From the IMG/VR virus record IMGVR_UViG_2541047701_000002: a stretch of DNA of 35,102 nucleotides; one strand, given 5' to 3'. A model generated the notes under the pieces. That model was not told the DNA's origin, made no database searches, and worked only from the letters and a program-made list of their open reading frames with translations. The DNA comes from a virus. Taxonomy: Duplodnaviria; Heunggongvirae; Uroviricota; Caudoviricetes. Positions 5,201-21,412 of the stretch are shown here, piece after piece (the first letter of the stretch is position 1; every line of letters begins with the position of its first letter). The translations under genes and the position numbers were made by a program.

Positions 5201-5718
5201 GGCAGGTTACCCACCACCACCGAGGCCAGATACTGCGAGGTGGTTTTGCCCTTAATGGTGATGTCTTTTTCCGTCACCCAGCCACCATTACGCTGTATCT
5301 GAACCAGCAGACGGACTTCCGACGGATTCCTGTCACCCTTTGAGGTGGTTTCCACCAGTGCCTGTACACCGAAGGTAAAGCGCAGACGGTCGATGTTTGC
5401 CGACGTAATGGTGCGGGTGATCGGCGTGTCATATTTCACTTCCGTACCCAGCACCGTCTCGGAGCCGGAGGATTCAAATCCCTCCGGCGGTGACTGCTCC
5501 TGCTCACCTGCCCGGAACACCACCGTGACGCCGGATATATTGGTATTCCCCTCACTGTCCAGCACCGGCGTACTGTTCAGCAGCACGCTTTTTAATCCAT
5601 CCACCGGACCTTCAACCGGCCCTTCGCTGATGGCATCAATCACACTCAGCAGCTGCGTGGATTTCAGGTTGTCCTTCGCTTCGCGCGGGGTATGCCCCTT
5701 ACTGCTGCCTTTACCCAT
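2236..5718 (-). CDS. J: Tail tip / host specificity protein J
   Basis: 1160 aa; N-terminus [34 protein letters not shown] and most of the length near-identical to lambda J; C-terminal receptor-binding end diverges. Confidence 0.95.
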
Positions 5719-5778
5719 TCGTCATGCTCCATAAACGATAAAACCGCCCGGAGGCGGTTTCACATAAAACATTTTGCA

Positions 5779-6450
5779 TCAGCGACCAATCACCACAACC
5801 TGACCACCATCCCCTTCGTCTGCCGTGCTGATCTCCTGAGAAACCACGCGTGACCCCACGCGCATTTCACCGTACAGAACCGGCAGAACATTGCCCTGGG
5901 CAACCATGTTATCCAGTGAGGAGAAATAGGTGTTCTGTTTGCCGTTATCCGTTGTCTGTGTACGGGGAGTTCTGGCTTTCGGTGCCAGCATCTGCGCCAC
6001 ACCACCGAGCACCATACTGGCACCGAGAGAAAACAGGATGCCGGTCATACCACCGGCCCCAATGGCTGCCCCCCATGCTGCAAGGGTGGCTCCGGCGGTA
6101 AAGAATGATCCGGCAATGGCGGCAGCCCCCAGGACAATCTGGAATACGCCACCTGACTTGGCCCCGGCGACTCTGGGAACAATATGAATCACAGCGCCAT
6201 CAGGCAGAGTCTCATGTAACTGCGCCGTTAACCCGGACGTGCTGACGTCCCGCCCGGCAATCCGTACCTGATACCAGCCGTCGCTCAGTTTCTGACGAAA
6301 CACCGGGAGCTGTGTGGCCAGTGCGCGGATGGCTTCAGCCCCCGTTTTCACACGAAGGTCGATGCGGCGGCCAAATCGTTGTAAATCCCCGTAAAGGCAG
6401 ATGCGCGCCATGCCCGGTGACGCCAGAGGGAGTGTGTGCGTCGCTGCCAT
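5779..6450 (-). CDS. I: Tail tip assembly protein I
   Basis: 223 aa, MAATHTLPLASPGMARICLYGDLQRFGRR matches lambda I; overlaps K by 103 bp as in lambda. Confidence 0.93.
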   Translation of the reverse strand: MAATHTLPLASPGMARICLYGDLQRFGRRIDLRVKTGAEAIRALATQLPVFRQKLSDGWYQVRIAGRDVSTSGLTAQLHETLPDGAVIHIVPRVAGAKSGGVFQIVLGAAAIAGSFFTAGATLAAWGAAIGAGGMTGILFSLGASMVLGGVAQMLAPKARTPRTQTTDNGKQNTYFSSLDNMVAQGNVLPVLYGEMRVGSRVVSQEISTADEGDGGQVVVIGR

Positions 6451-8124: not shown

Positions 8125-10682
8125 CGTCCACCTCCGGAGAACAGACCACCATCGCGCATCTGTGCCTGGATTTCATCACGGGCACCCTTGCGGGCCATGT
8201 CATACACCGCCTTCATCATCTGTGGACCTGGCAGACCATTCGTACCGTCGTTCTGAATCACCACGTTGTTGTTCTGCTCAAACCTGATACCCTCTGAACG
8301 CCGCATTTGCGCCGGACTTCCGGTGCCACCGACATAACCGCCGGTGGCATAGCCGCGCATCAGCCGGTAGAGATTTCCCACGCCAATCCGGCTGGTTGCC
8401 TCCTTCGTGAAGACAAATTCACCACGGTGAACAATCCCCGCTGGCTCATATTTGCCGCCGGTTCCCGTAAATCCTCCGGTTGCAAAATGGAGTTTCGCCG
8501 CAGCGGCCTGAATGGCTGTACCGCCTGACGCGGATGCGCCGCCACCAACAGCCCCGCCAATAGCGCTGCCGATACTCCCGACAATCCCCACCATTGCCTG
8601 CTTAAGCAGAATTTCTGTCATCATGGACAGCACGGAACGGGTGAAGCTGCGCCAGTTCTGTTCACTGCCGGTCAGCATCGCCGCCATATTCTGCGCAATA
8701 CCATCAAAGGTCTGCGTGGCAGCACTTTTAACCTGCGACATACTGTCCGTGGCACTCTCTTCCCACTCACTCCAGCCGGACTTCAGGCCTGCCATCCAGT
8801 TCCCGCGAAGCAGGTCTTCAGCCGCCCAGGTCTTTTTCTGCTCTGACATGACGTTATTCAGCGCCAGAGGATTATCGCCATACTGTTCCTTCAGGCGCTG
8901 TTCCGTGGCTTCCCGTTCTGCCTGCCGGTCAGTCAGCCCCCGGCTTTTCGCATCAATAGCGGCCCGTTTTGCCCGTTGCTGCTGTGCGAATTTATCCGCC
9001 TGCTGCGCCAGCGCGTTCAGGCGCTCCTGATACGTAACCTTGTCGCCAAGTGCAGCCAGCTGGCGTTTGTACTCCAGCGTCTCATCTTTATGCGCCAGCA
9101 GGGATTTCTCCTGTGCAGACAGCTGGCGACGTTGCGCCGCCTCCTCCAGTACCGCGAACTGACTCTCCGCCTTCCACAAATCCCGGCGCTGCTGGCTGAT
9201 TTTCTCATTTGCTCCGGCATGCTTCTCCAGCGTCCGGAGTTCAGCCTGAAGCGTCAGCAGGGCAGCATGAGCACTGTCTTCCTGACGATCGCCCGCAGAC
9301 ACCTTCACGCCGGACTGTTTCGGCTTTTTCAGCGTCGCTTCATAATCCTTTTTCGCCGCCGCCATCAGCGTGTTGTAATCTGCCTGCAGGATTTTCCCGT
9401 CTTTCAGTGCCTTGTTCAGTTCTTCCTGACGGGCGGTATATTTCTCCAGCGGTGTCTGCAGCCGTTCGTAAGCCTTCTGCGCCTCTTCGGTATATTTCAG
9501 CCGTGATGCTTCGGTATCGCTCTGCTGCTGCGCATTTTTGTCCTGTTGACTCTGCTGTTCAGCCTTCTTTCGGGCGGCTTCAAGCGCAAGACGGGCCTTT
9601 TCACGATCATCCCAGTAACGCGCCCGCGCTTCATCGTTAACAAAATAATCATCCTTGCGCAGATTCCAGATGTCGTCCGCTTTCTTAAACGCAGCCTCTG
9701 CCTTAATCAGCATCTCCTGAGCGGTATCAGGACGACCAATATCCAGCACCGCATCCCACATGGATTTGAATGCCCGTGCTGTCCTGTCTGCCCAGGTTTC
9801 CAGCGTGCCCATGTTCTCTTTCAGGCGTCGGGTCTGGTCATCAAACCCTTTCGTTGCGGCCTCGTTCGCCGCCTGCAATGCCCCGGATTCATCGCCGGAA
9901 CGCTGCAACTGAGCAACATACGCAATCTGCTCCGCCGTTACGTTATGGAACTGGCGCGCCATCGCCGTCAGCCCCGACGTCGGGTCAGTGGTCAGCTTCC
10001 CGAAGGCTTCAGCGACCTTGTCCACCTCCACGCCGGATGCAGAGGAGAAACGCGCCACACTCTGGCTGATGGATGCAATCTGAGCCTCACCGCTTACTCC
10101 CGCCTTAACCAGTGCGCTGAGTGACTCGCTGGTCTGGTTAAACGTCAGCCCTGCCGCCTGCCCGGCTCTGGACAGGACCAGCATACGATCTGCCGTCAGA
10201 CCCGACTGATTGCCGGAAAGGACCAGCGTTTTGTTGAAATCGGACAGGGTTGAGTTACCCTGATACCAGGCATACGCCAGCGCACCGGTCGCCACCGCCA
10301 GCGAGGTGGCCCCGACCATCGGCAGGGTGATCGCACCGGCAAGCCCCCGGAACATGGGGATCATCCCGCCGAAGGAGTCCTTAACCTGACCACCCTGTTG
10401 CAGCAGGATCAGCCACGGGCTTTGCCCGCCTGCAAGCTGCGTGGCCACGTCGGTGAACTGTGCAGGCAGCATACGCATGGCGGCTTTATACTGCCCGACG
10501 GAAATCCCCGCTTTCTGTGCAGCCAGCGCCTGTCGGCTCAGCGACTGTTCAACGACTGCCGCTGTTTTTTTCGCATCACTTTCCGTACCGGAAAAATGAC
10601 GCCTGACTCTGGCCATCTGCTCGTCAAATCTGGCCGCATCCAGACTTAAATCAACGACCAGATCGCCTACCGGTTCAGCCAT
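8121..10682 (-). CDS. H: Tail tape measure protein H
   Basis: 853 aa (same length as lambda H); coiled-coil rich; lambda H-like N- and C-termini. Confidence 0.95.
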   Translation of the reverse strand: MAEPVGDLVVDLSLDAARFDEQMARVRRHFSGTESDAKKTAAVVEQSLSRQALAAQKAGISVGQYKAAMRMLPAQFTDVATQLAGGQSPWLILLQQGGQVKDSFGGMIPMFRGLAGAITLPMVGATSLAVATGALAYAWYQGNSTLSDFNKTLVLSGNQSGLTADRMLVLSRAGQAAGLTFNQTSESLSALVKAGVSGEAQIASISQSVARFSSASGVEVDKVAEAFGKLTTDPTSGLTAMARQFHNVTAEQIAYVAQLQRSGDESGALQAANEAATKGFDDQTRRLKENMGTLETWADRTARAFKSMWDAVLDIGRPDTAQEMLIKAEAAFKKADDIWNLRKDDYFVNDEARARYWDDREKARLALEAARKKAEQQSQQDKNAQQQSDTEASRLKYTEEAQKAYERLQTPLEKYTARQEELNKALKDGKILQADYNTLMAAAKKDYEATLKKPKQSGVKVSAGDRQEDSAHAALLTLQAELRTLEKHAGANEKISQQRRDLWKAESQFAVLEEAAQRRQLSAQEKSLLAHKDETLEYKRQLAALGDKVTYQERLNALAQQADKFAQQQRAKRAAIDAKSRGLTDRQAEREATEQRLKEQYGDNPLALNNVMSEQKKTWAAEDLLRGNWMAGLKSGWSEWEESATDSMSQVKSAATQTFDGIAQNMAAMLTGSEQNWRSFTRSVLSMMTEILLKQAMVGIVGSIGSAIGGAVGGGASASGGTAIQAAAAKLHFATGGFTGTGGKYEPAGIVHRGEFVFTKEATSRIGVGNLYRLMRGYATGGYVGGTGSPAQMRRSEGIRFEQNNNVVIQNDGTNGLPGPQMMKAVYDMARKGARDEIQAQMRDGGLFSGGGR

Positions 10683-11513
10683 ACCGGACTCCTCCTGCGA
10701 TCCCTTCTGATACTGTCATCAGCATTACGTCATCCTCCGTCATGCCCGCCATATCCGGGGAAGCGGGGATAACTTCATTTCCGTCCGGGTCAAAGCGGAC
10801 GCCTCCGGTAAGCCCTGCCGCTTTCTGCATCAGCACATCATCTTCAGGCTCTTCGTCATCCTCACGCCGGTTCAGCAAACTGAAATCCAGCGGATGCATA
10901 TCCGGATCGCTGAAAAACAGGCTGAGCACAGTGTACGTCAGCCCGGAAAAGTGCATATCCAGCAGAACATCATGAAAATAATGGGTACTGTAAAAGCGGT
11001 GCCAGTCGGCATACTCCGTGGATGACATCCCGGCAAGCATGGCGCGCCAGTCAGGTCGCCCCATCTCTCGCGCCAGTTTCAGGGCAAAACTCAGCTCACC
11101 GTCGAACACTTTCCCGCAGAAACAGGCTCTGCAGGCCCGGAGTCCTCTGCCTGGTCAGGGGCATCATTCACCACAAACCCATACATACCGGACAGCCGGT
11201 ACACCACGTTTTCAGCATGAGAAATTGCCTCCGCGGGCCAGGTGGTAAGCACTTCCTGCTCAATCTGTTTAACGGCTTCATTCATGGAAGGCTGCTTTGT
11301 CTTCTGCGGATGGTTATGCCACAGGGACATCGCCACCACAAAAGCACCGGTTCTGATGGCGTCTTCCACAGTAACCTGCCGGTTGCTGTCTGACTCCGCC
11401 TGTTCTGCCTGCTGTTTCATCAGGGCGAGATGCTCAATACGCTGCAGGGCTGACAGTTCAGAAAGCGTGACGGTCACGCCGTTATGTTCAAATGATTCGG
11501 TTTTCAGGAACAT
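10675..11513 (-). CDS. T: Tail assembly chaperone G-T fusion (programmed -1 frameshift product)
   Basis: T-frame ORF 10675-11109 has no independent start context; it joins the G frame at the slippery heptamer GGGAAAG (about 11109-11115) as in lambda. Confidence 0.8.
11091..11513 (-). CDS. G: Tail assembly chaperone G
   Basis: 140 aa, lambda G-like (MFLKTESFEHNGVTVTLSELSALQRIEHLALMKQ). Confidence 0.93.
   Translation of the reverse strand: MFLKTESFEHNGVTVTLSELSALQRIEHLALMKQQAEQAESDSNRQVTVEDAIRTGAFVVAMSLWHNHPQKTKQPSMNEAVKQIEQEVLTTWPAEAISHAENVVYRLSGMYGFVVNDAPDQAEDSGPAEPVSAGKCSTVS
11109..11115 (-). other. G-T -1 ribosomal frameshift slippery site (GGGAAAG)
   Basis: Plus strand ctttccc, minus strand GGGAAAG, at the G/T ORF overlap. 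Confidence 0.8.
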
Positions 11514-11528
11514 CGCTGACTCTCCGGA

Positions 11529-12269
11529 TTAACTGTCGGTGACAGTGATTTCTGCAACCGCAGCAAGTTCACCATTACCGGATACAACCGGAATGTTGAC
11601 CTTGCCTGCAGCAACGCCGTTCACGGTGATGGTCATACCACTGACCGACACGGTGGCTTTTGTTTTATCCGCTGACACCGCACGGAAGCTCTTGTCAGTT
11701 GCGCCCTCCGGCTGGAAGGCCACGGTCAGCGTGGTGCTCTGCCCTTTCACCACCGAGGAGCTGGCAGGCGTCACGGTCATACCGGTTGCCGCCGTCACCG
11801 TACTGCGATCTTCTGCCATTGACGGACGGCCCACATTGGTGACCTTCACCGTACGGGTGATCACTTCCTTCGCCGTCACCGCCTTACCGATACTGCTGAC
11901 CCAGCCACGGAACACATCGACCGTGCCGTTCGGGAAGCGGATTTTATAGGCACGGGTATCACCTTCATTAAACCACGCCAGCAGCGCCTGCTGCCCCTGC
12001 TCTCCGGGCATCCACGCCAGCGTGAAGCTGGTATATCCGGCGGATTTCTGCCCCTGCCCGGTCGCGGTCCAGTCCGCATCTTCATCATCGAGATAACTGT
12101 CGTCATAGGACTCAGCGGTCAGTTCGCCGGGCGTCAGGTCTTTAATTTTTGCCAGACGCGACCAGTCATTGTCTGAAAGCGGGTTTGCATAAGGGTCGCC
12201 GCTCCCGTTATAAACCCACAGTGTGGTCCCGGCCCCTTTCACCGGTGCCAGAGGATTTGGTGTTGGCAT
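11529..12269 (-). CDS. V: Major tail tube protein V (with C-terminal Ig-like domain)
   Basis: Start trimmed 10 codons to [20 protein letters not shown], matching the lambda V start; 246 aa. Confidence 0.93.
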
Positions 12270-12276
12270 ATCGTCC

Positions 12277-12672
12277 TCACATTTCATAGGTAATGACATA
12301 AGTCAGATCGGCTGAACTCCACAGGCCCGCATCATCGTCGCGCCGGTAGTCATAGCCACTGGCCACCATACTGGTGATCAAATCTGACAGTGCCGGGATA
12401 TCGCTCATCACCGGATAAATCCGGGACTCCATCCACGAATCCAGCTCTGAATCCGGCACCTGAGCAGGCAGGAAAACTTCAATATGCAGCTCCGCCTGCC
12501 AGGTATCGCTGTCCAGCTCTTCGCCCGTGTATTCAGCGCCGGTGAGATAAACGGCAATTGCCGGAAAATCTTCCTCATCAAAAACAGCAGGGCGACCATC
12601 AAAAAGCGTCGCCCCGGTGTCATGCTTCTCCAGTGCATCCAGTACGGCTGCACGGAGTTCAGTATGTTTCAT
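12277..12672 (-). CDS. U: Tail terminator protein U
   Basis: 131 aa, lambda U-like. Confidence 0.93.
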
Positions 12673-13247
12673 CGCTTTATTACCATTCTCAGTTGATGCT
12701 GCAGCGCATAGCCCAGCTCTTTCGGAAGACGCTCACGCCGTATCCGCTCAATATTCTGTTTAAACGCCGTGGTCAGCGGCACCGCCATCGGGATTTTCAC
12801 CACATCAATGGGGTAACGGTTTTTCCCGGCCACACGCTGCATGACATGCCACCGGCCATTTTTCAGTTGCTGAATAAACGCGCCGGGAATACGACGGTTT
12901 CCCACCACAAGCACGCTGCCGCCACCTTTCAGGGATGAACGCTGCCCCTTTTTACGACGCCTGCGTCGGGACAGGACAACCCGCGCGTTACCCAGCCTGA
13001 TTACGGGCAAATCCCCCCGGTTAACTTTGATTCTGGCCTGCGGATTTTTGACCGTGGCCCTTTTCAGCCTGGCCCTTTCCTTTACCAGTTTCCGGCGTAC
13101 CTTTGTCTCACGGGCAACCAGTGACGCCGACTGCGATATCGCGGATGAAGCAACGCGGTTAATGGCCATTGCGGCGGCACCAGGCACTGCCGTTTTGCTG
13201 ATACGGCTGAGGTTTTCAACGGCCTGCTCAAGACCTTTTATGGCCAT
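12669..13247 (-). CDS. Z: Tail completion protein Z
   Basis: Start trimmed to MAIKGLEQAVENLSRISK (lambda Z N-terminus); 192 aa. Confidence 0.9.
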   Translation of the reverse strand: MAIKGLEQAVENLSRISKTAVPGAAAMAINRVASSAISQSASLVARETKVRRKLVKERARLKRATVKNPQARIKVNRGDLPVIRLGNARVVLSRRRRRKKGQRSSLKGGGSVLVVGNRRIPGAFIQQLKNGRWHVMQRVAGKNRYPIDVVKIPMAVPLTTAFKQNIERIRRERLPKELGYALQHQLRMVIKR

Positions 13248-13258
13248 ACATCCCCCTT

Positions 13259-13612
13259 TCAGCGGCGACGGCTGGCGGCAGGTGGTTGCCCCCGGTTGAG
13301 CCAGAGATAACAACTCCCTCCGTCATCCGGAGAAACACGGTCCACCCAGAACATCTCGCCGTTAATGGTCAGCGTGTCACCACGCCGTACAGCACAAACC
13401 GTATCCGTAAGCACAAATAATGACGGGTTACTTCCTTCAATACGGATCCCACTACTGGCAAAACCCAGCGACTCCGGATCGTCAAAAACGCCATGAACCT
13501 CGCCGCCACGCTGTGCACCGGAGGTGAACTGCGCACTGATGCCCATCACTTCAACAATCGTACTGTCCACCCCGGCAAGGGCGGCATCAAAGGCATTCTG
13601 AAAATCACGCAT
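13259..13612 (-). CDS. FII: Head-tail joining protein FII
   Basis: Start trimmed to MRDFQNAFDAALAG, aligning with the lambda FII N-terminus; 117 aa. Confidence 0.88.
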   Translation of the reverse strand: MRDFQNAFDAALAGVDSTIVEVMGISAQFTSGAQRGGEVHGVFDDPESLGFASSGIRIEGSNPSLFVLTDTVCAVRRGDTLTINGEMFWVDRVSPDDGGSCYLWLNRGQPPAASRRR

Positions 13613-13979
13613 AAACAGCCATTCCACCATCAACGTGTGTTTTTGCATCTGAGGACATAATCAGAATCACCCGACCAACATCCGCAAGCTCAACGGATTC
13701 CCCCGTTTCACCATCAACGCCACAGAGATGGAGGCAGGTCAGAACTCTGATGCGCGTTAACGCGCCGGATGTTTCCTCACGAACATCATGAGCCGCGGTT
13801 TCCCGCTCCCGGATATCCATATTCATAACCTGTACATCATCGCCGGATGACTGCATTTCCTCTTCCCATTCTGCCACCCGCTGCGCTATCTCTGCGGCAC
13901 TCCCGGATATATCCGGCTCACGCCCCAGAATCAGGGCCAGTTCATCAAGCCGTTTCAGATTTTGCTCTTTCGTTGCCAT
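13605..13979 (-). CDS. FI: DNA packaging / head completion protein FI-like
   Basis: Start trimmed to MATKEQNLKRLDELAL; acidic protein in the lambda FI position between E and FII. Confidence 0.8.
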   Translation of the reverse strand: MATKEQNLKRLDELALILGREPDISGSAAEIAQRVAEWEEEMQSSGDDVQVMNMDIRERETAAHDVREETSGALTRIRVLTCLHLCGVDGETGESVELADVGRVILIMSSDAKTHVDGGMAVYA

Positions 13980-13993
13980 ATCAGCCCCCTGTG

Positions 13994-14022
13994 AAAAAAG
14001 ACACGGGGGCATTTCGCCCCCG
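13994..14022 (-). terminator. Rho-independent terminator-like hairpin between E and FI
   Basis: Minus strand GGGGGCGAAATGCCCCC followed by GTGTCTTTTTT directly after the E stop; could attenuate readthrough after the major capsid gene. Confidence 0.5.
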
Positions 14023-14030
14023 CTCACGGA

Positions 14031-15059
14031 TTATTTCACCTGTACCACCACAAACTCATCCGGGTCCGGCAACACCATCAGCGGCGCGGACTGCGTCATG
14101 GTAAATTCACGGGCGGGATCCCCTACCGTCAGCCAGTGTTTCGGATAACGGGAAGAGGCCACCACACCTTCGGACAACGCCTGAGCATCCTGAATGGCAC
14201 CGTAACAACGGATCCCATCTGCAGCAGTATTCCCCAGAACCAGCATGCCATCTGGAAGATAACGTTTTTCGATACCGTCTTCTGCTATATAAGACGTTTT
14301 CGCCACCACAATGGCCAGATCGCCGTAATACCCCTTGAAGGACACCACTGCGCCCAGATCTTTCACTGCCGTTTCGAGTTGAGAATTTGAACCGCGACGG
14401 GTATCCAGTTTTTCGCGGAACAGCTTAAAACCATTCAGAAGACGCCAGACGGTACCGTCCATAATGGCAATATTCACAAGACCGCTGGCCAGGTCGCAGT
14501 AGAGGTCAATATCATGTGTAGGATCGAACGTGTCACGATCCTGTTTTGACCACTCCTTACCACTACCCTGAGTGATGTTATTCTTCGTCGACCTGCCAAA
14601 ATCGACCTCAATTTTCTCGAACTGGTCTCCTTCCATGGTGTATTTGCCATACAACACAGCATTTACCGCCTGCATTTCTTCCACCTGGACAATCGCGTGC
14701 TCTTCCTGTTTGAGGTTATCGGTAATGATACGCAGACGGCGGTAAGCCGGATCATTCAGTTGAGATGGATCTTCACCAGGAAGGCGCTCAACCGCCTGCT
14801 GGTAATTAAATTCGTGTTTCGGCTTGACGTAGCCCGGACGCAACACGCGGGTTTCACCACCACGATGACGCAGCACTTTTCCTTCAACAACCGGGGAGAC
14901 ATAGGCCGCCACCGGCGTTTTTCCGGTAATTTTGTCCAGCATCACCTCTTCGGTATGGAAATTCACCGTACGGCGGAAAAACAGCTCCAGAAACAGCGCA
15001 CGAAATTTAACTTTTTGTTCGGTATAACCGAGTAACTGGCGGGTCGTAAACAATCCCAT
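14031..15059 (-). CDS. E: Major capsid protein E
   Basis: 342 aa; strong match to lambda E (KYTMEGDQFEKIEVDFGRS, GDPAREFTMTQSAPLM). Confidence 0.95.
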   Translation of the reverse strand: MGLFTTRQLLGYTEQKVKFRALFLELFFRRTVNFHTEEVMLDKITGKTPVAAYVSPVVEGKVLRHRGGETRVLRPGYVKPKHEFNYQQAVERLPGEDPSQLNDPAYRRLRIITDNLKQEEHAIVQVEEMQAVNAVLYGKYTMEGDQFEKIEVDFGRSTKNNITQGSGKEWSKQDRDTFDPTHDIDLYCDLASGLVNIAIMDGTVWRLLNGFKLFREKLDTRRGSNSQLETAVKDLGAVVSFKGYYGDLAIVVAKTSYIAEDGIEKRYLPDGMLVLGNTAADGIRCYGAIQDAQALSEGVVASSRYPKHWLTVGDPAREFTMTQSAPLMVLPDPDEFVVVQVK

Positions 15060-15116
15060 AAATCAGTTCCTTTCATTCAGAAATCAGTCAGGCCACCGCG
15101 GTGGCCTGATAACGTG

Positions 15117-15464
15117 TTACGGCAGCGCCGCGTGACTCAGGGCACTGCCAGCAAAGGCGTTGGCCTTTTTGTGTTCATCCACACTTTCAGGCCAGTGGAT
15201 TGCCTCCGTCGCAAAGGTTCCCGACTTGTAATACGTCAGCGCCGTCTCTGTGCCTTCAAGCGGCAGTACCAGTATGCCAACCGCACTACCGGCTTTCTGT
15301 CCGTCCCAGACCACCAGTTTCCCGGTGGCTTCATCCAGCATCAGGGGCGTCAGTGCCGGTGTTGGCGAGGAAATCCCGCTGCTGCCTGTGGCGGTATGAG
15401 CCGGATCATTACCGGCAAAAATACGTACTTCCGCACGCTGTTCAGTGATGGTTTTCGTCACCAT
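15117..15464 (-). CDS. D: Head decoration protein D
   Basis: 115 aa; DPAHTATGSSG...TPLMLDEATGKLVVWDG matches lambda D. Confidence 0.92.
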   Translation of the reverse strand: MVTKTITEQRAEVRIFAGNDPAHTATGSSGISSPTPALTPLMLDEATGKLVVWDGQKAGSAVGILVLPLEGTETALTYYKSGTFATEAIHWPESVDEHKKANAFAGSALSHAALP

Positions 15465-15500
15465 ATTGTAAAAACCTCCTATTGATGGTCAGCACTGACT

Positions 15501-17006
15501 TCATGGCATGGCCATGAGCATTTTCACGTCCGCATCACCGTCTGCTGACGTCTGTGCCACGCCACCCTGTACCGCTGCCGGTGAATGGTTCGCCATGAAA
15601 TGTTCAAACATGGCGGTTGTGGATGCAGAGACCGGTTCTGCCTTACCTGATCCCGCAGCCAGCACAGCCCGGGCGCTCTCCACTGTCATTCCCGGGCAGG
15701 CAGCCAGCTGTTCAGCCTGCGCCTCAGCCCCTTTTGCCTCATCCAGTGCCATGATCTGATCACGGAGTGATGGTCCGGCATCCGCCTGCGGTGAAGCAGC
15801 CAGGATCGGGCGGGCTTTTTCCACCGTCATCTCCGGCATCGCCGCCAGCGTTGCCGCCAGTTGTTCACGACCGTTCGCTTCTTCACACACCATAATGCGA
15901 TCGGCTTCACTCTGCGTGGATGCCACCGGCTGCTGCGGTGCCGCCGCGGCCAGAATCGCCCGGGCCTGTTCAACGCTCATGCCCTGTTGTCCTGCCAGCA
16001 TCGTGGCAAGCTGTTCACGTCCTTTCGCTTCCTGGCATGTCAGGATCCCCATCACTCGCTGGTTCTCCTGCGCGGCGGCTTCCGTTGCAGTTAATTGCGG
16101 CATAGTGCCTCCTCTGACATTACTGTTCAGCGCCGTGGCCATCACACTGATGGCATCCGACGCATTGATTAATTCATCCGCCAGCCCGGCCTCAATGCCG
16201 GACTGACCTTCAAAAACGGCAGCCTCTGTTCCCGTGACGGCATCAACAGACAGACCGGTATACATCGCCACTTTTTCGGCAAACATCCGGCGCGCCGCAT
16301 CAATCCGCTGCTGCATGTCCTGGCGAACCTCTGCCGGCAACGCTTCAAACTGATTGCCATCCACCTTGTGCGCCCCTGAGTAAATCAGCGTGATATCCAC
16401 ACCGGCCTGCGCCAGATGACCGGCATAGCTGACATGGCTCATCATCACGCCAATGGAGCCGATACGGGATGTCTGGGTAACCAGCCGTCGGGAGCAGGCC
16501 GACGCCAGCAGCATGGCTGCAGAACAGGCCGTGTCATTGCACAGTGCCCAGACCGGCTTCTGCTGACGGAGGCGGTAAATCATGTCAGCGCAGTCAAACG
16601 CGCCGGCGGCCTGCCCGCCCGGACTGTCAATGTCCAGCAGTACGCCCCGCACCTGGCTATCCGCCATTGCCTGCTGAAGACAGGCGACAATGCCGTCATA
16701 GCCTGTCATTCCGGAAAATGGCCGCATCCCCCCCAGCCGGTGCACCAGCGTGCCGGTCACCGGCAGTACAGCAATACCGTTCACCACCCGGTAAACACGG
16801 GCCGGTCGTTTACCTCCGGCCATGTACTCGTCCGTTTCAGCCAGCATTCCGGGAGCATCAAACTGTACCTGCTGTTGTGGTACCGAAAGACTTGCTGCCC
16901 CCATCTCGCGCCCGAGCGCGCAAAAGAAAACCCGCGCATAGGCGGGCTCCAGAAGCAGCGGTTCATTGAATGCTGCGGCAATAATGTGTGAAAGATTACG
17001 TCTCAC
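15501..17006 (-). CDS. C: Prohead protease / minor capsid protein C (S49 peptidase) with in-frame Nu3-like scaffold region
   Basis: N-terminal region lambda C-like (AAFNEPLLLEPAYARVFFCAL, S49/ClpP-like core); apparent GTG start overlapping the B end; C-terminal third carries three tandem copies of a ~40-aa helical motif. Confidence 0.9.
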   Translation of the reverse strand: MRRNLSHIIAAAFNEPLLLEPAYARVFFCALGREMGAASLSVPQQQVQFDAPGMLAETDEYMAGGKRPARVYRVVNGIAVLPVTGTLVHRLGGMRPFSGMTGYDGIVACLQQAMADSQVRGVLLDIDSPGGQAAGAFDCADMIYRLRQQKPVWALCNDTACSAAMLLASACSRRLVTQTSRIGSIGVMMSHVSYAGHLAQAGVDITLIYSGAHKVDGNQFEALPAEVRQDMQQRIDAARRMFAEKVAMYTGLSVDAVTGTEAAVFEGQSGIEAGLADELINASDAISVMATALNSNVRGGTMPQLTATEAAAQENQRVMGILTCQEAKGREQLATMLAGQQGMSVEQARAILAAAAPQQPVASTQSEADRIMVCEEANGREQLAATLAAMPEMTVEKARPILAASPQADAGPSLRDQIMALDEAKGAEAQAEQLAACPGMTVESARAVLAAGSGKAEPVSASTTAMFEHFMANHSPAAVQGGVAQTSADGDADVKMLMAMP

Positions 17007-18588
17007 GTGGTGTTGTCTCCTCTTCCGGCCTACGACTCTCCGCTATCTGCTGCTGATACGCCTGCTCTATCCACACCGGACGTGAGAGTCCGGCTTTTTG
17101 CCGCTCAGCAGATTCCCTGACCTGCTGGCGGAAAATGTCCTGATAATCCTCGCCCATCAGCGCCAGCTCTTTCTCATACGTGCTCAGTCCGGCCTCAATG
17201 CGCATCACTGATTCCTGGACTTCCTTGAGCCCGTCAATGGCCATTCTTCCGGCACCAATCCACTCTGCCCGTGACCAGGCTGATCGCGCCTGATAAAAAT
17301 CAAAACGTGCCCGTGGCGGACGAATAATCCCCCGAAGAAGTGCCTCTTCCAGCCAGCAGGAAAACATCTGCGTGGCCAGCCGGGCCGCAATAAATTTTCG
17401 CCGCCCCATAAAATAGCGCCACGACTCATTGGCGGAGGCGCGGGCACTTGAGTAACTGACCTTCGAGTAATCACGGGACAACTGTTCGTAGGAAACGCCA
17501 AGACCGGCGGCGATATACCGCAGCAGCGCCTGTTCAAGCGCAGAAAATCCATTGTCTGAATCCTGCGCAGTCTGTAGTTTCAGATCATCACCAGGGAAAA
17601 GGTGCGGAATTTTGACACCGCCCAGTGTCACGTTATTCGTGTCATACCAGCTGGAAAACTTCTCCAGAATATTAATAAGCGGATTATCCTTCTGCTCCTG
17701 TGGCGCGCCGGCGATATATTCAAAGGCCTTTTCGGTATCAAGTTCACTTTCAATCGTCGCTGCATACATCGCCTTCACTATGGCCGACTGAAGCTGTGTT
17801 GCCTGCAGGGAATCGAGCATCTTCAGCCGTTCCATGACGCTGTAAAACTGATTAGCCCCACGGGTCTGCCCGTCCTCCACCGGCTCGAAAATATGCAGCA
17901 TGGCCGGACGCCCGGTGGGAAGTTCACGCGGGATCCGTTCCCATCGTCCACTACCAGAGAACGGAAAATCATCCTCACAGATATGGTACGCGACGGCACG
18001 GCCATATCGATCGACCTCCACACCGGCCCGCAGAAAACGGTTCCCCATACCGTGTCCAGGCGTGTCCACCCGTTTCGGACTCACGGCTTTAAAACGCGTA
18101 CGGAATAACTGCGTGGTTTCCGTATCCCAGACCGGCTGCACAAAGATTTCGCCGTTAAACGCATGAACGCCCACACCTTCACGGATAAATTCCGTGAACG
18201 TGCGTTTTCCTTCCACGTCGATCTCGCCAAACATCCCTTCGGCGTATTCCGACCAGGCCGCCTCCACCTCATCGACAAAGCTTTTTGCTGCGGTCTCCCG
18301 CATCCCCAGCCAGCGCCAGTTCGGACGGTAGCTGATCAGAAACATATGCCCGACAATGTGATCCTTATGCAGAGCCACCGCATTAGCCGCTATTCCGTTA
18401 TTGCGCACCAGATCATCTGCCCGGGCATTCCCCAGACGCAACGCGGGCAGCAGGGCCGCATCGGCACTCTGCGCCGGTGGCAACCACTCAGCCATTTGCC
18501 CGCCAAATCCTGCACCGCCCCCGTTGTAGCTGAGACTCTCACGAAGCGGAACGCCGTTCACATCAATCAGGACAGGCGTTCGTTTCAT
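16996..18588 (-). CDS. B: Portal protein B
   Basis: Start trimmed to MKRTPVLIDVNGVPLRESLSYNGGGAGFGGQ (lambda B); ATGA overlap with the W stop. Confidence 0.95.
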   Translation of the reverse strand: MKRTPVLIDVNGVPLRESLSYNGGGAGFGGQMAEWLPPAQSADAALLPALRLGNARADDLVRNNGIAANAVALHKDHIVGHMFLISYRPNWRWLGMRETAAKSFVDEVEAAWSEYAEGMFGEIDVEGKRTFTEFIREGVGVHAFNGEIFVQPVWDTETTQLFRTRFKAVSPKRVDTPGHGMGNRFLRAGVEVDRYGRAVAYHICEDDFPFSGSGRWERIPRELPTGRPAMLHIFEPVEDGQTRGANQFYSVMERLKMLDSLQATQLQSAIVKAMYAATIESELDTEKAFEYIAGAPQEQKDNPLINILEKFSSWYDTNNVTLGGVKIPHLFPGDDLKLQTAQDSDNGFSALEQALLRYIAAGLGVSYEQLSRDYSKVSYSSARASANESWRYFMGRRKFIAARLATQMFSCWLEEALLRGIIRPPRARFDFYQARSAWSRAEWIGAGRMAIDGLKEVQESVMRIEAGLSTYEKELALMGEDYQDIFRQQVRESAERQKAGLSRPVWIEQAYQQQIAESRRPEEETTPRET

Positions 18589-18791
18589 AACCTCACTCCC
18601 AGCGGACGACGGCGACACCGGGTTGTCCCCAGTACCGACTCCGCATCATTGATCGCCCGGTTAAGCTCATCCAGAGAAGCCGCCGTATATTCAATTCTGC
18701 GACCATCTTTCTGGACAGACACCACCCGTTTACCGGTTAATAAATCAAGGCGCGCCTGACGCAGCGCCTGCAGTTCAGCGACTGTAACCAT
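18585..18791 (-). CDS. W: Head-tail joining protein W
   Basis: 68 aa, same size and position as lambda W. Confidence 0.9.
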   Translation of the reverse strand: MVTVAELQALRQARLDLLTGKRVVSVQKDGRRIEYTAASLDELNRAINDAESVLGTTRCRRRPLGVRL

Positions 18792-20703
18792 TCACTCCTC
18801 CGGACAGCTTCGCTGCCAGTTCTTTAAGGGTTGGCCGGGTCGTCTCTTCTTCCCGGGATTTTGCCAGTACAGCCAGATCAAGCTGCCAGCGTTGCACGGA
18901 CACACGTAATGCCGCGTAGGCATACACCAGGCAGTCCAGCGCTTCGTTACGCCGCTTTTTGTTATCCCACAGCAGACGCATCTTTCCTTTTTCCCACTTC
19001 TCCACAAGCTCTTCCGCGACCAGTTGCTGCGCCTCTGTCTGCGAAAAAATCTCCGGATCATCAGGAAAACGGATAGCATACGACGTGGCTTCATCCACAG
19101 GCGTGGGATCGGCTTTCATACGGGCATAGAGAATTTCTTTTGCGGTGTCCGTCCCCACTTCACACAGATACACGCCCCGCTGATTGCGGGTTTTTGGCAT
19201 GGTGATCACCGGCTTGCCATAGACAGATGCGCCTTTTACCGGCAGCACCCGGAAAACACCGTGTTTTTTTGACCTCTGATAAACGATTTCGCCATCGATC
19301 CCCCCGATGTCCCAGCAGACACGGGAAATGGTCATTTCGGTTCCGTCTGCATGGCGGTATTTTTTGTTGATCGCCGCATCCACACGTAACAGCGTCTCTT
19401 CCTCATCGGGACGCCCCATAATGATGATTTTATCCACCAGAAAGGCTTCCTCTCCCGGAGCCCATCCCCAGACATACATCTCAAAACGGTTTCGCTGCGA
19501 GTCAATGCCCGCCGTCAGATAAACCACCCGGGCAGGCACCGCCGCCGTGTAACGCACAACCTTATCCATCAGCACCTGGTGATCGAGTTTTTCGCCCACA
19601 GCCTCTTCCCAGGTCTCGCCCAGCGTGGTGTTCACAAAGGTTTTCAGGCCGTTGGGATCTTTCAGTGCATCCAGCCAGTCATAGACAATCTGTACCCAGG
19701 TGGTGAACGGACTGTACGCCGTCCAGATATGGAAAGTGATGGAGCGCGGCGGCGGAATTTCATCACCCCGGGCGCTGAAAAACATCAGGCCGTCACGGGT
19801 CCACATGCCCGTGTTTTCACAGATCCACCGCCCGTTACTCTGGTCAAGCTCAGACTGATGGATCACACAGCCATGATGCTCACAAAGGTAGAAAACACTT
19901 TCTGGCTTATTCTTCTCCCACTTAAGACCGAAAGGCGAGGCATCATCGCCAAATTTCAGATACTGCTCCTCCCCACAGTGCGGACAGGGCACATAAAAAC
20001 GCATGAAGTGTGCCGACTCGTTAGCGGCTTTTTCGATCTGGCAGGAGCCTTTGATTTTAGGCGTCGAGCCGCGAATGGATTTTGGCCATACAGAGCCCTC
20101 AATACGTTTATCCCCCAGCAGGGTTGGCGAACCCTCTTTTTCAACATCCGGTTCGAACGAGGAAAGCTCGTCATAACAGACCACATCCACGGATTTTTCA
20201 CGGTAGTTTTTTGCTGCCGCACCACCCAGACACCAGAACCCCACACCGGAGGAAAAACGCTTCAGGGTGAGCGTATTATCGCGGTGTTTTCTTCCGAACC
20301 ATGGAGCCAGCTCCAGCAATGCAGGAACATCCCTTATCGTTGGCTCAACATGAGATTTCATAAAATCTTCAGCAGCTGAGTCCGTGGGCTGAAAAAGAAG
20401 GCTGTTGCGTGATTTATGCTCAATAAAATAAGCCTCCACTCCCAGCAACATCTTTGTATAACCAACACGGGCAGATTTAATCAGGTTAACCGTGCGAATC
20501 AGATCGTTGCCCATACAGTTCATGATGCCAACCTGAAACGGCAGTGTTTCCCATCGCCCCGGGGTATAAGACGACTCTTTAGGAAGGTAATAATGTTTAT
20601 TGGCCCACTGAACTGTCGTCAGTGGAACAGGAATAATGAGAGATAAAAGCCCTGTAGCTATCGCACCGGCTGCATTAGCTGCCTTCTGCGCGTCTGAAAT
20701 CAT
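18775..20703 (-). CDS. A: Terminase large subunit A
   Basis: Lambda gpA-like across its length ([20 protein letters not shown], ATPase and nuclease regions); start trimmed to MISDAQ, overlapping Nu1 by about 29 bp as in lambda. Confidence 0.95.
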
Positions 20704-21223
20704 CGATCCACCCGCCCACGTTTTCACCGGCCTTAGCTGCAACATTGGAGGCTTTCGCGATTTCAGTTTTCACCACATCAAGGTGTGATGGTGAAATGTC
20801 CGGATATTTACGCTGTAATGTCAACGGCACACGCACAAGTATCCCCGAAATCTCCTGTGCCACACGTTGCAGAATGAAGGTAAACAGTTCAGTTTCCAGC
20901 ACTACTCCGTCTTCACGGGCATTTTTCAGTTCCTGCGCATCTGCCTGCGCTTTTGTGAGCCGGTAGCGTTCATAGTCAATGGTGCCGGGTTGTAAATCTG
21001 ACTCCGCTGCCGCACGCAAATCGTCCAGTTCTTTGCGGAGCTTTTCGTTTTCGATATCAGTTTCCCTCTGCGCATACCACTGAATTGCCATGGCAGTATC
21101 AAATACAGATTCAATGCCCTTACTACCTTTGGAGGCGCAAGGGAGTCCCTGAGACTGCCAGCGTTCAATCGTCCGCGGGTCCACGTTGAAAATTTCGGCA
21201 AGCCTCTTTTTATTAACCTTCAT
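20675..21223 (-). CDS. Nu1: Terminase small subunit Nu1
   Basis: 182 aa; [28 protein letters not shown] winged-HTH N-terminus like lambda Nu1. Confidence 0.95.
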
Positions 21224-21412
21224 GAAAACAACCCATTATCAAATACAAGGCCCGACATGAAAACGCCAGAAAAAGGCATTTTCGGACACTTTCATGTCGG
21301 ACCTTTACGGATGCAATATTAAAAAAAAACAAAAAGTTATATTCGAGAAGTACCGACACGATTTTCCCTGAAAAATTTTCATAAATAGTGAAAAACCGCG
21401 AGGTCGCCGCCC
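21224..21412 (-). other. cos: cos site: cosB (Nu1/IHF binding region) plus cosN with lambda-identical 12-nt cohesive end
   Basis: Minus strand GGGCGGCGACCT at about 21401-21412, followed by CGCGGTTTTTCACTATTTATGAAAATTTT as in the lambda left end; 11-bp inverted repeat CCGACATGAAA / TTTCATGTCGG at about 21252-21300. Confidence 0.85.

Follow-up and report, generated by a model that had tools for sequence, protein, structure and literature searches.

In phage lambda, the head protease gpC ends in a C-terminus identical to the scaffolding protein Nu3, and this shared part probably brings the protease into the procapsid. P2 gpO-type fusions combine protease and scaffold function in one reading frame as well, but they employ another protease family and no Tri-type module (see below) was detected in them. 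The scaffolding protein gp8 of P22 possesses a C-terminal helix-turn-helix coat-binding domain, a small helical element in a flexible scaffold that provides a functional analogy only: it is a single terminal domain without a fused protease, and it has no sequence or Foldseek similarity to the Tri module. For lambda, Nu3-Nu3, Nu3-C, Nu3-B and Nu3-E interactions are on record, and gpC is listed as degrading Nu3 (PMC3224144).

Coliphage 21 carries the equivalents of lambda C and Nu3 as genes 5 and 6. Its GenBank record M81255, an earlier fragment of the kind in which single-base errors are corrected by the new sequences (PMC9119081), contains three repeat_region features within gene 6, each labelled "function unknown; putative". 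These are the Tri1 box (5542-5645), the Tri box (5682-5792) and the Tri3 box (5823-5936). This gene, with its nested scaffold start and three boxes at identical positions, is also present in the window, i.e. the whole stretch of 35,102 nucleotides that was analysed here, and no sequence feature sets the copy apart from phage 21 genes 5/6. Its gene 5 is identical to gene 5 of M81255 in 1504 of 1506 nt with 0 indels, a tblastn search against phage records returned phage 21 (M81255.1) with 99.8% identity, and window positions 10001-21412 (11.4 kb) match the complete genome of phage 21 (OL657228) with 100% identity. Because no indels separate the M81255 gene 5 from the gene in the window, the boxes map straight onto the latter, at 15933-16036 (Tri1), 15786-15896 (Tri) and 15642-15755 (Tri3), and their translations are the motif copies 1, 2 and 3, respectively. 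The repeat and the Tri1/Tri/Tri3 boxes already annotated in coliphage 21 genes 5/6 are one and the same. The triplication, described in the earlier note on this DNA as a repeat expansion, is not new: M81255 has documented it since the early 1990s.

The prophage head module in the window is of the phage 21 type. In contrast to phage 21 itself, the gene copy of the window belongs to an E. coli prophage that has no more than the head/tail arm in common with this phage. Positions 10001-35000 match the ECOR13 prophage PhiR63_2 with 100% identity over 98% of their length. Outside the head/tail arm (10001-21412), this stretch matches PhiR63_2 and lambdoid phages such as ev017, not phage 21, and includes a porin (OmpD/NmpC-like) gene; it is a typical lambdoid mosaic.

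Gene 5 (15501-17006, reverse strand) encodes a 501-aa S49 prohead protease with a C-terminal scaffold domain and is annotated in M81255 and, as CPT_21_05, in OL657228. Its product matches Peptidase_S49 (PF01343) in Pfam with E 3.7e-35 and, as a whole, the head maturation proteases of PHROG 53 with E 1.7e-228. The S49 peptidase domain occupies aa 146-293 (16128-16571, reverse strand) according to the Pfam domain limits. A sequence search of solved structures with the gene 5 product matched the protease domain alone (SppA, ClpP), with the SppA structures 3rst/4kwb aligning to aa 77-290 at E 4e-16. Ser162, part of a C-S-A motif, aligns in BLASTP with Ser166 of lambda gpC, the catalytic serine. 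The surrounding ORFs follow in the order portal (16996-18618), protease/scaffold (15501-17006), decoration (15117-15464) and major capsid protein (14031-15059), which is in full synteny with the lambda head module. The major capsid protein (342 aa) and lambda gpE (341 aa) share 62% identity from end to end. Annotation, homology and synteny agree in identifying the gene as the equivalent of lambda C with a Nu3-equivalent scaffold nested in frame, just as had been proposed from the bare sequence.

This nested gene 6 (15501-16103, reverse strand) encodes the 200-aa scaffolding protein AGAGGAGGCACTATG, and is annotated in M81255 as well as in OL657228 (CPT_21_06, "scaffolding protein"). It starts at an internal ATG (16101-16103, reverse strand) in the same frame as gene 5. 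A Shine-Dalgarno sequence GGAGG (16109-16113, reverse strand), found in the sequence and in the phage 21 records, lies 5 nt upstream of this ATG. A separate gp6 scaffold, consisting of the C-terminal 200 aa of gene 5, is thereby predicted from an in-frame start with a strong ribosome-binding site. The lambda genome possesses the homologous element AGGAGG-N5-ATG at coordinate 5342, in frame as in phage 21 gene 6. With this homologous start, the lambda scaffold has 131 aa, against 200 aa for that of phage 21. In the RefSeq record of lambda (NC_001416.1) nu3 is annotated from 5132 (201 aa), where the ATG has no good ribosome-binding site. The shorter lambda Nu3 (5342, 131 aa) is favoured because Shine-Dalgarno sequence and ATG are kept in both phages.

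Three repeat units were delimited in the scaffold region by profile search and mapping. All are on the reverse strand, and each corresponds to one of the M81255 boxes: unit 1 comprises aa 316-356 (15939-16061, Tri1 box), unit 2 aa 367-406 (15789-15908, Tri box) and unit 3 aa 414-453 (15648-15767, Tri3 box). The motif peptides named in the earlier note fall at aa 319-354, 371-404 and 418-451 of the 501-aa product. The interval given there (15780-16110) is correct for copies 1 and 2 and also encloses the scaffold ATG, but leaves copy 3 (15648-15767) outside. The repeat period of about 50 aa is made up of the module of about 40 aa and a linker of about 10 aa rich in Pro, Ala and Gln. Pairwise BLOSUM62 local scores between the three segments of about 50 aa range from 83 to 101, compared with shuffle means of about 25 (z = 11.8-16.5), and none of 1000 composition-preserving shuffles reaches the observed unit-unit scores. 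When the three copies are made into a profile, it detects three domains in the gene 5 product (E 1e-24 to 2e-26). These scores and profile domains confirm the original description of a motif of about 40 aa present in three diverged tandem copies in the scaffold region.

At the DNA level the units have an identity of 58-63%, and the same codon is used at only 8-9 of the 19-21 residues that are identical between units. Tandem Repeats Finder reports no repeat in 15400-17100, because the units are too diverged in their DNA; the repeat is therefore visible at the protein level only. A DNA-level repeat search recovered fragments of 12-25 nt only, with one family at the expected spacing of 150-153 nt.

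Lambda gpC shares the S49 protease domain and is 54% identical overall to the gene 5 product. Together with Nu3, it also has the module, a C-terminal tail of the same kind and the gene order portal-C-D-E in common with phage 21. The three-copy profile detects just one domain in gpC (aa 360-399, E 1e-16), and BLASTP aligns the same single copy, in agreement with the single copy that the earlier note gives for lambda. The difference lies in the arrangement: in lambda one module follows a linker of about 50 aa rich in Ala, Thr and Gln, whereas in phage 21 three modules come after a lead-in of 14 aa. One module forms the conserved core of the lambda Nu3 scaffold and of the C-terminal domain of gpC, and likewise that of numerous further S49 prohead proteases and stand-alone scaffolds.

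The consensus of 147 distinct units is R-[VI]-x-G-I-L-x-[CL]-x-E-A-K-G-R-E-x-L-A-x-x-L-A-x-x-P-G-M-[TS]-V-E-x-A-[KR]-x-[IL]-L-A-A-A-P. Conservation among these units is 85-99% in the EAKGRE loop and at small or hydrophobic positions of the helices. In phage 21, unit 3 has KGAE instead of KGRE and so lacks an Arg that is present in 92% of the units, and therefore the three copies may be functionally non-equivalent. The stretch concerned (15700-15720, reverse strand) reads KGAEAQAEQLA; 66% of the units have Leu two positions after KGRE. The third units of Salmonella and Trabulsiella retain KGRE, which marks KGAE as drift specific to phage 21.

Structure prediction was performed for the whole of gp6 and for a single unit. 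The single-unit model, made from a 59-residue stretch that holds unit 1 and an alignment of 36 diverse single-copy relatives, has a pLDDT of 89.2 and predicted helices at residues 6-21, 30-37 and 44-53. In the whole gp6 model (pLDDT 67.8, pTM 0.27) the three-helix pattern occurs three times, connected by flexible linkers, and there is no confident packing among the three units. Each unit is, according to these models, a small three-helix module that probably folds independently. The scaffold region is not covered by any model of Pfam or NCBIfam. Foldseek searches against the PDB with the gp6 model and the single unit, small helical queries for which the method has low power, gave no match at E <= 0.001, and no match to known scaffold coat-binding domains, those of the P22 type included; given the low power, a function analogous to that of the P22 domain may exist all the same. 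In BFVD, a library of predicted viral structures, the best structural neighbours are S49 prohead proteases (TM 0.80-0.84, rmsd about 1 Å), and the close ones come solely from Salmonella phage 37, a Synechococcus virus and an uncultured siphovirus. An Rfam scan of the window yielded no match.

Behind the last unit follows the C-terminal tail, aa 454-501 (15504-15647, reverse strand). It contains one predicted helix (MFEHFMANHS), placed at gp6 residues 160-173 in the AF2 model of gp6 with low confidence, and its end, LMxMP, is conserved in the alignment. At the beginning of the tail, whose lambda counterpart is gpC aa 400-439, a helix (MFEHFM in phage 21, ALDRLM in lambda) aligns in BLASTP with the unit start EADRIM, and because of this alignment the tail may open with the degenerate first helix of one more unit.

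A full-length three-copy region is present in 1864 of 5426 complete E. coli genomes (about a third), in up to five places per genome. Its length is fixed in 1869 of 1875 matching E. coli records (603 nt in the sampled rows). Since a protein search with gp6 gave mostly partial database entries, these were used for variants, and the census of copy number was drawn instead from GTDB loci and a library of representative proteins. The profile search of this library (1.84 billion representative proteins) returned 404 clusters (50% identity) at E <= 0.001. Re-scanning of the 143 top matches among them revealed 130 proteins with a single unit, 8 with two and 5 with three; they are either protease fusions of about 400-550 aa or scaffold-sized proteins of about 100-250 aa. 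Of 52 loci from GTDB species representatives, 45 have one unit, two have two, and five have three, the latter from E. coli, Shigella flexneri, E. albertii, Trabulsiella guamensis and Providencia alcalifaciens. S49 prohead proteases and stand-alone scaffolds normally possess a single copy, and the three-copy forms occur in prophages of Enterobacterales.

Across Escherichia, Salmonella, Trabulsiella and Providencia prophages, a unit clusters with those that occupy the same place in other genomes and not with the other units of its own genome, from which it follows that the triplication is older than the split between these phage lineages. The first units all join the single copies from lambda, Kluyvera and Vibrio, and second and third units fall mostly into groups of their own; unit 1 is therefore regarded as the ancestral position and the orthologue of the lambda copy. 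The grouping of the unit sequences indicates that the in-frame triplication of the module is an old event in the lineage of phage 21.

Forms with two or four copies are rarer but exist as well. A further E. coli prophage lineage (protein P0026; GCA_032727965.1, contig ABNWJB010000046.1, locus L057 1-1043) contains four units in a scaffold region that is 47% identical, and the gene lies within a normal lambda-like D-E-FI-FII head module. Units 2-4 of this protein are most alike among themselves, which argues for a separate and more recent expansion. Bradyrhizobium spp. (two loci, L019 and L033) possess two units in scaffold-sized ORFs of about 200-230 aa with no protease domain in the same ORF. 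Their duplication appears independent, as the two units group together and apart from the enterobacterial units. Two partial E. coli S49 peptidases, variants of the phage 21-type gene, also have two units each. In one of them (P0022) unit 1 is fused to the end of unit 2 (MSVEQARPILAASPQ), a junction for which unequal recombination between units offers an explanation, as it would give such a fusion; in the other (P0016) unit 2 is deleted internally. Two-unit variants of this kind look like in-frame deletions between or within units and are rare among complete genomes.

The explanation that we consider very probable as a whole consists of the known Tri boxes of phage 21, an ancient in-frame triplication and a putative contact function of the module. 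The module is probably a scaffold contact module. It would act as a protein-protein contact element that recruits scaffold and protease into the growing procapsid, by scaffold self-association, by binding of the capsid protein or by both, with the portal as another possible partner. Three units per chain would raise the valency and take the place of the long disordered linker of lambda, and the capsid geometry would stay lambda-like. The Nu3-Nu3, Nu3-C, Nu3-B and Nu3-E interactions of lambda provide the functional context that counts for a contact module (PMC3224144). A search of the available literature for a functional dissection of the Nu3 module found none. Scaffold-coat contact in other phages is usually made by the extreme C-terminus, which is here the non-repeated tail, and the module might therefore mediate self-association or something else.

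More tentatively, the Tri unit may be an autonomous domain of three helices that no catalogue lists and that serves as capsid-binding or oligomerising element of S49 prohead proteases and scaffolds, its valency being tuned by in-frame duplication and deletion; we regard this as a possibility somewhat short of even chances. If it applies, the series of copy numbers (one in the majority of phages, three in the group around phage 21, four in a further E. coli prophage lineage and, independently, two in Bradyrhizobium scaffolds) would be a natural test system for scaffold valency in procapsid nucleation and protease loading. The discovery value of the repeat itself is small, the triplication being already on record and located in one of the commonest E. 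coli prophage head modules. What remains of value is that lambda-family scaffolds contain a conserved module, probably able to fold by itself, which has no domain model and whose natural copy number of 1 to 4 gives a handle on a poorly defined part of lambda head assembly.

Among the other explanations, the units could chiefly be recognition or cleavage elements of the S49 protease, through which scaffold and protease are cleared before DNA packaging, more units meaning more cuts. The reported degradation of Nu3 by gpC in lambda (PMC3224144) would fit, and so would the position of the most conserved stretch, EAKGRE, in a charged loop between predicted helices. However, a folded three-helix module conserved over 40 residues exceeds what a cleavage site needs, and no cleavage-site data were found, so that we consider this function unlikely. 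The stand-alone scaffolds that carry the same module are compatible with cleavage elements and with a contact module alike.

A lineage-specific expansion that makes the stoichiometry of procapsid assembly, or properties of the capsid, differ from those of lambda is quite unlikely. The three modules of gp6 against one in lambda are in its favour, as are the natural two- and four-copy variants, from which it follows that the copy number can change. Yet the triplication is ancient and position-orthologous across genera, and the region has the same length in 1869 of 1875 matching E. coli records. Moreover, the capsid protein is 62% identical to gpE and of the same length, and the head module is syntenic. 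The changed stoichiometry suggested in the earlier note is unsupported.

Helix-hairpin-helix (HhH)-like nucleic-acid-binding motifs are a very improbable identity for the units. Unit 3 has a weak match to Pfam HHH (PF00633; E 0.097), and the pattern LAxxPGM[TS]VExAxxIL resembles the HhH hairpin. But the 13.0 bits of this match, which concerns unit 3 only, are far under the Pfam gathering score of 24, the second glycine of the hairpin is replaced by Thr or Ser in 92% of the units, and no HhH protein is among the Foldseek matches of either model.

A by-product of low-complexity sequence, the region being Ala-rich, or a repeat that acts at the DNA level, e.g. through the CII sites (TTGYN6TTGY) annotated inside the gene in OL657228 (window 15851-15864 and 16085-16098, forward strand), has next to no probability and is refuted by the composition-preserving shuffles, which never reach the observed scores, by the unit DNA identity of only about 60% and by the chance-level frequency of the CII pattern. 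TTGYN6TTGY occurs 5 times in the window versus 8.3 times expected by chance, and the annotated CII sites therefore look like pattern matches only.
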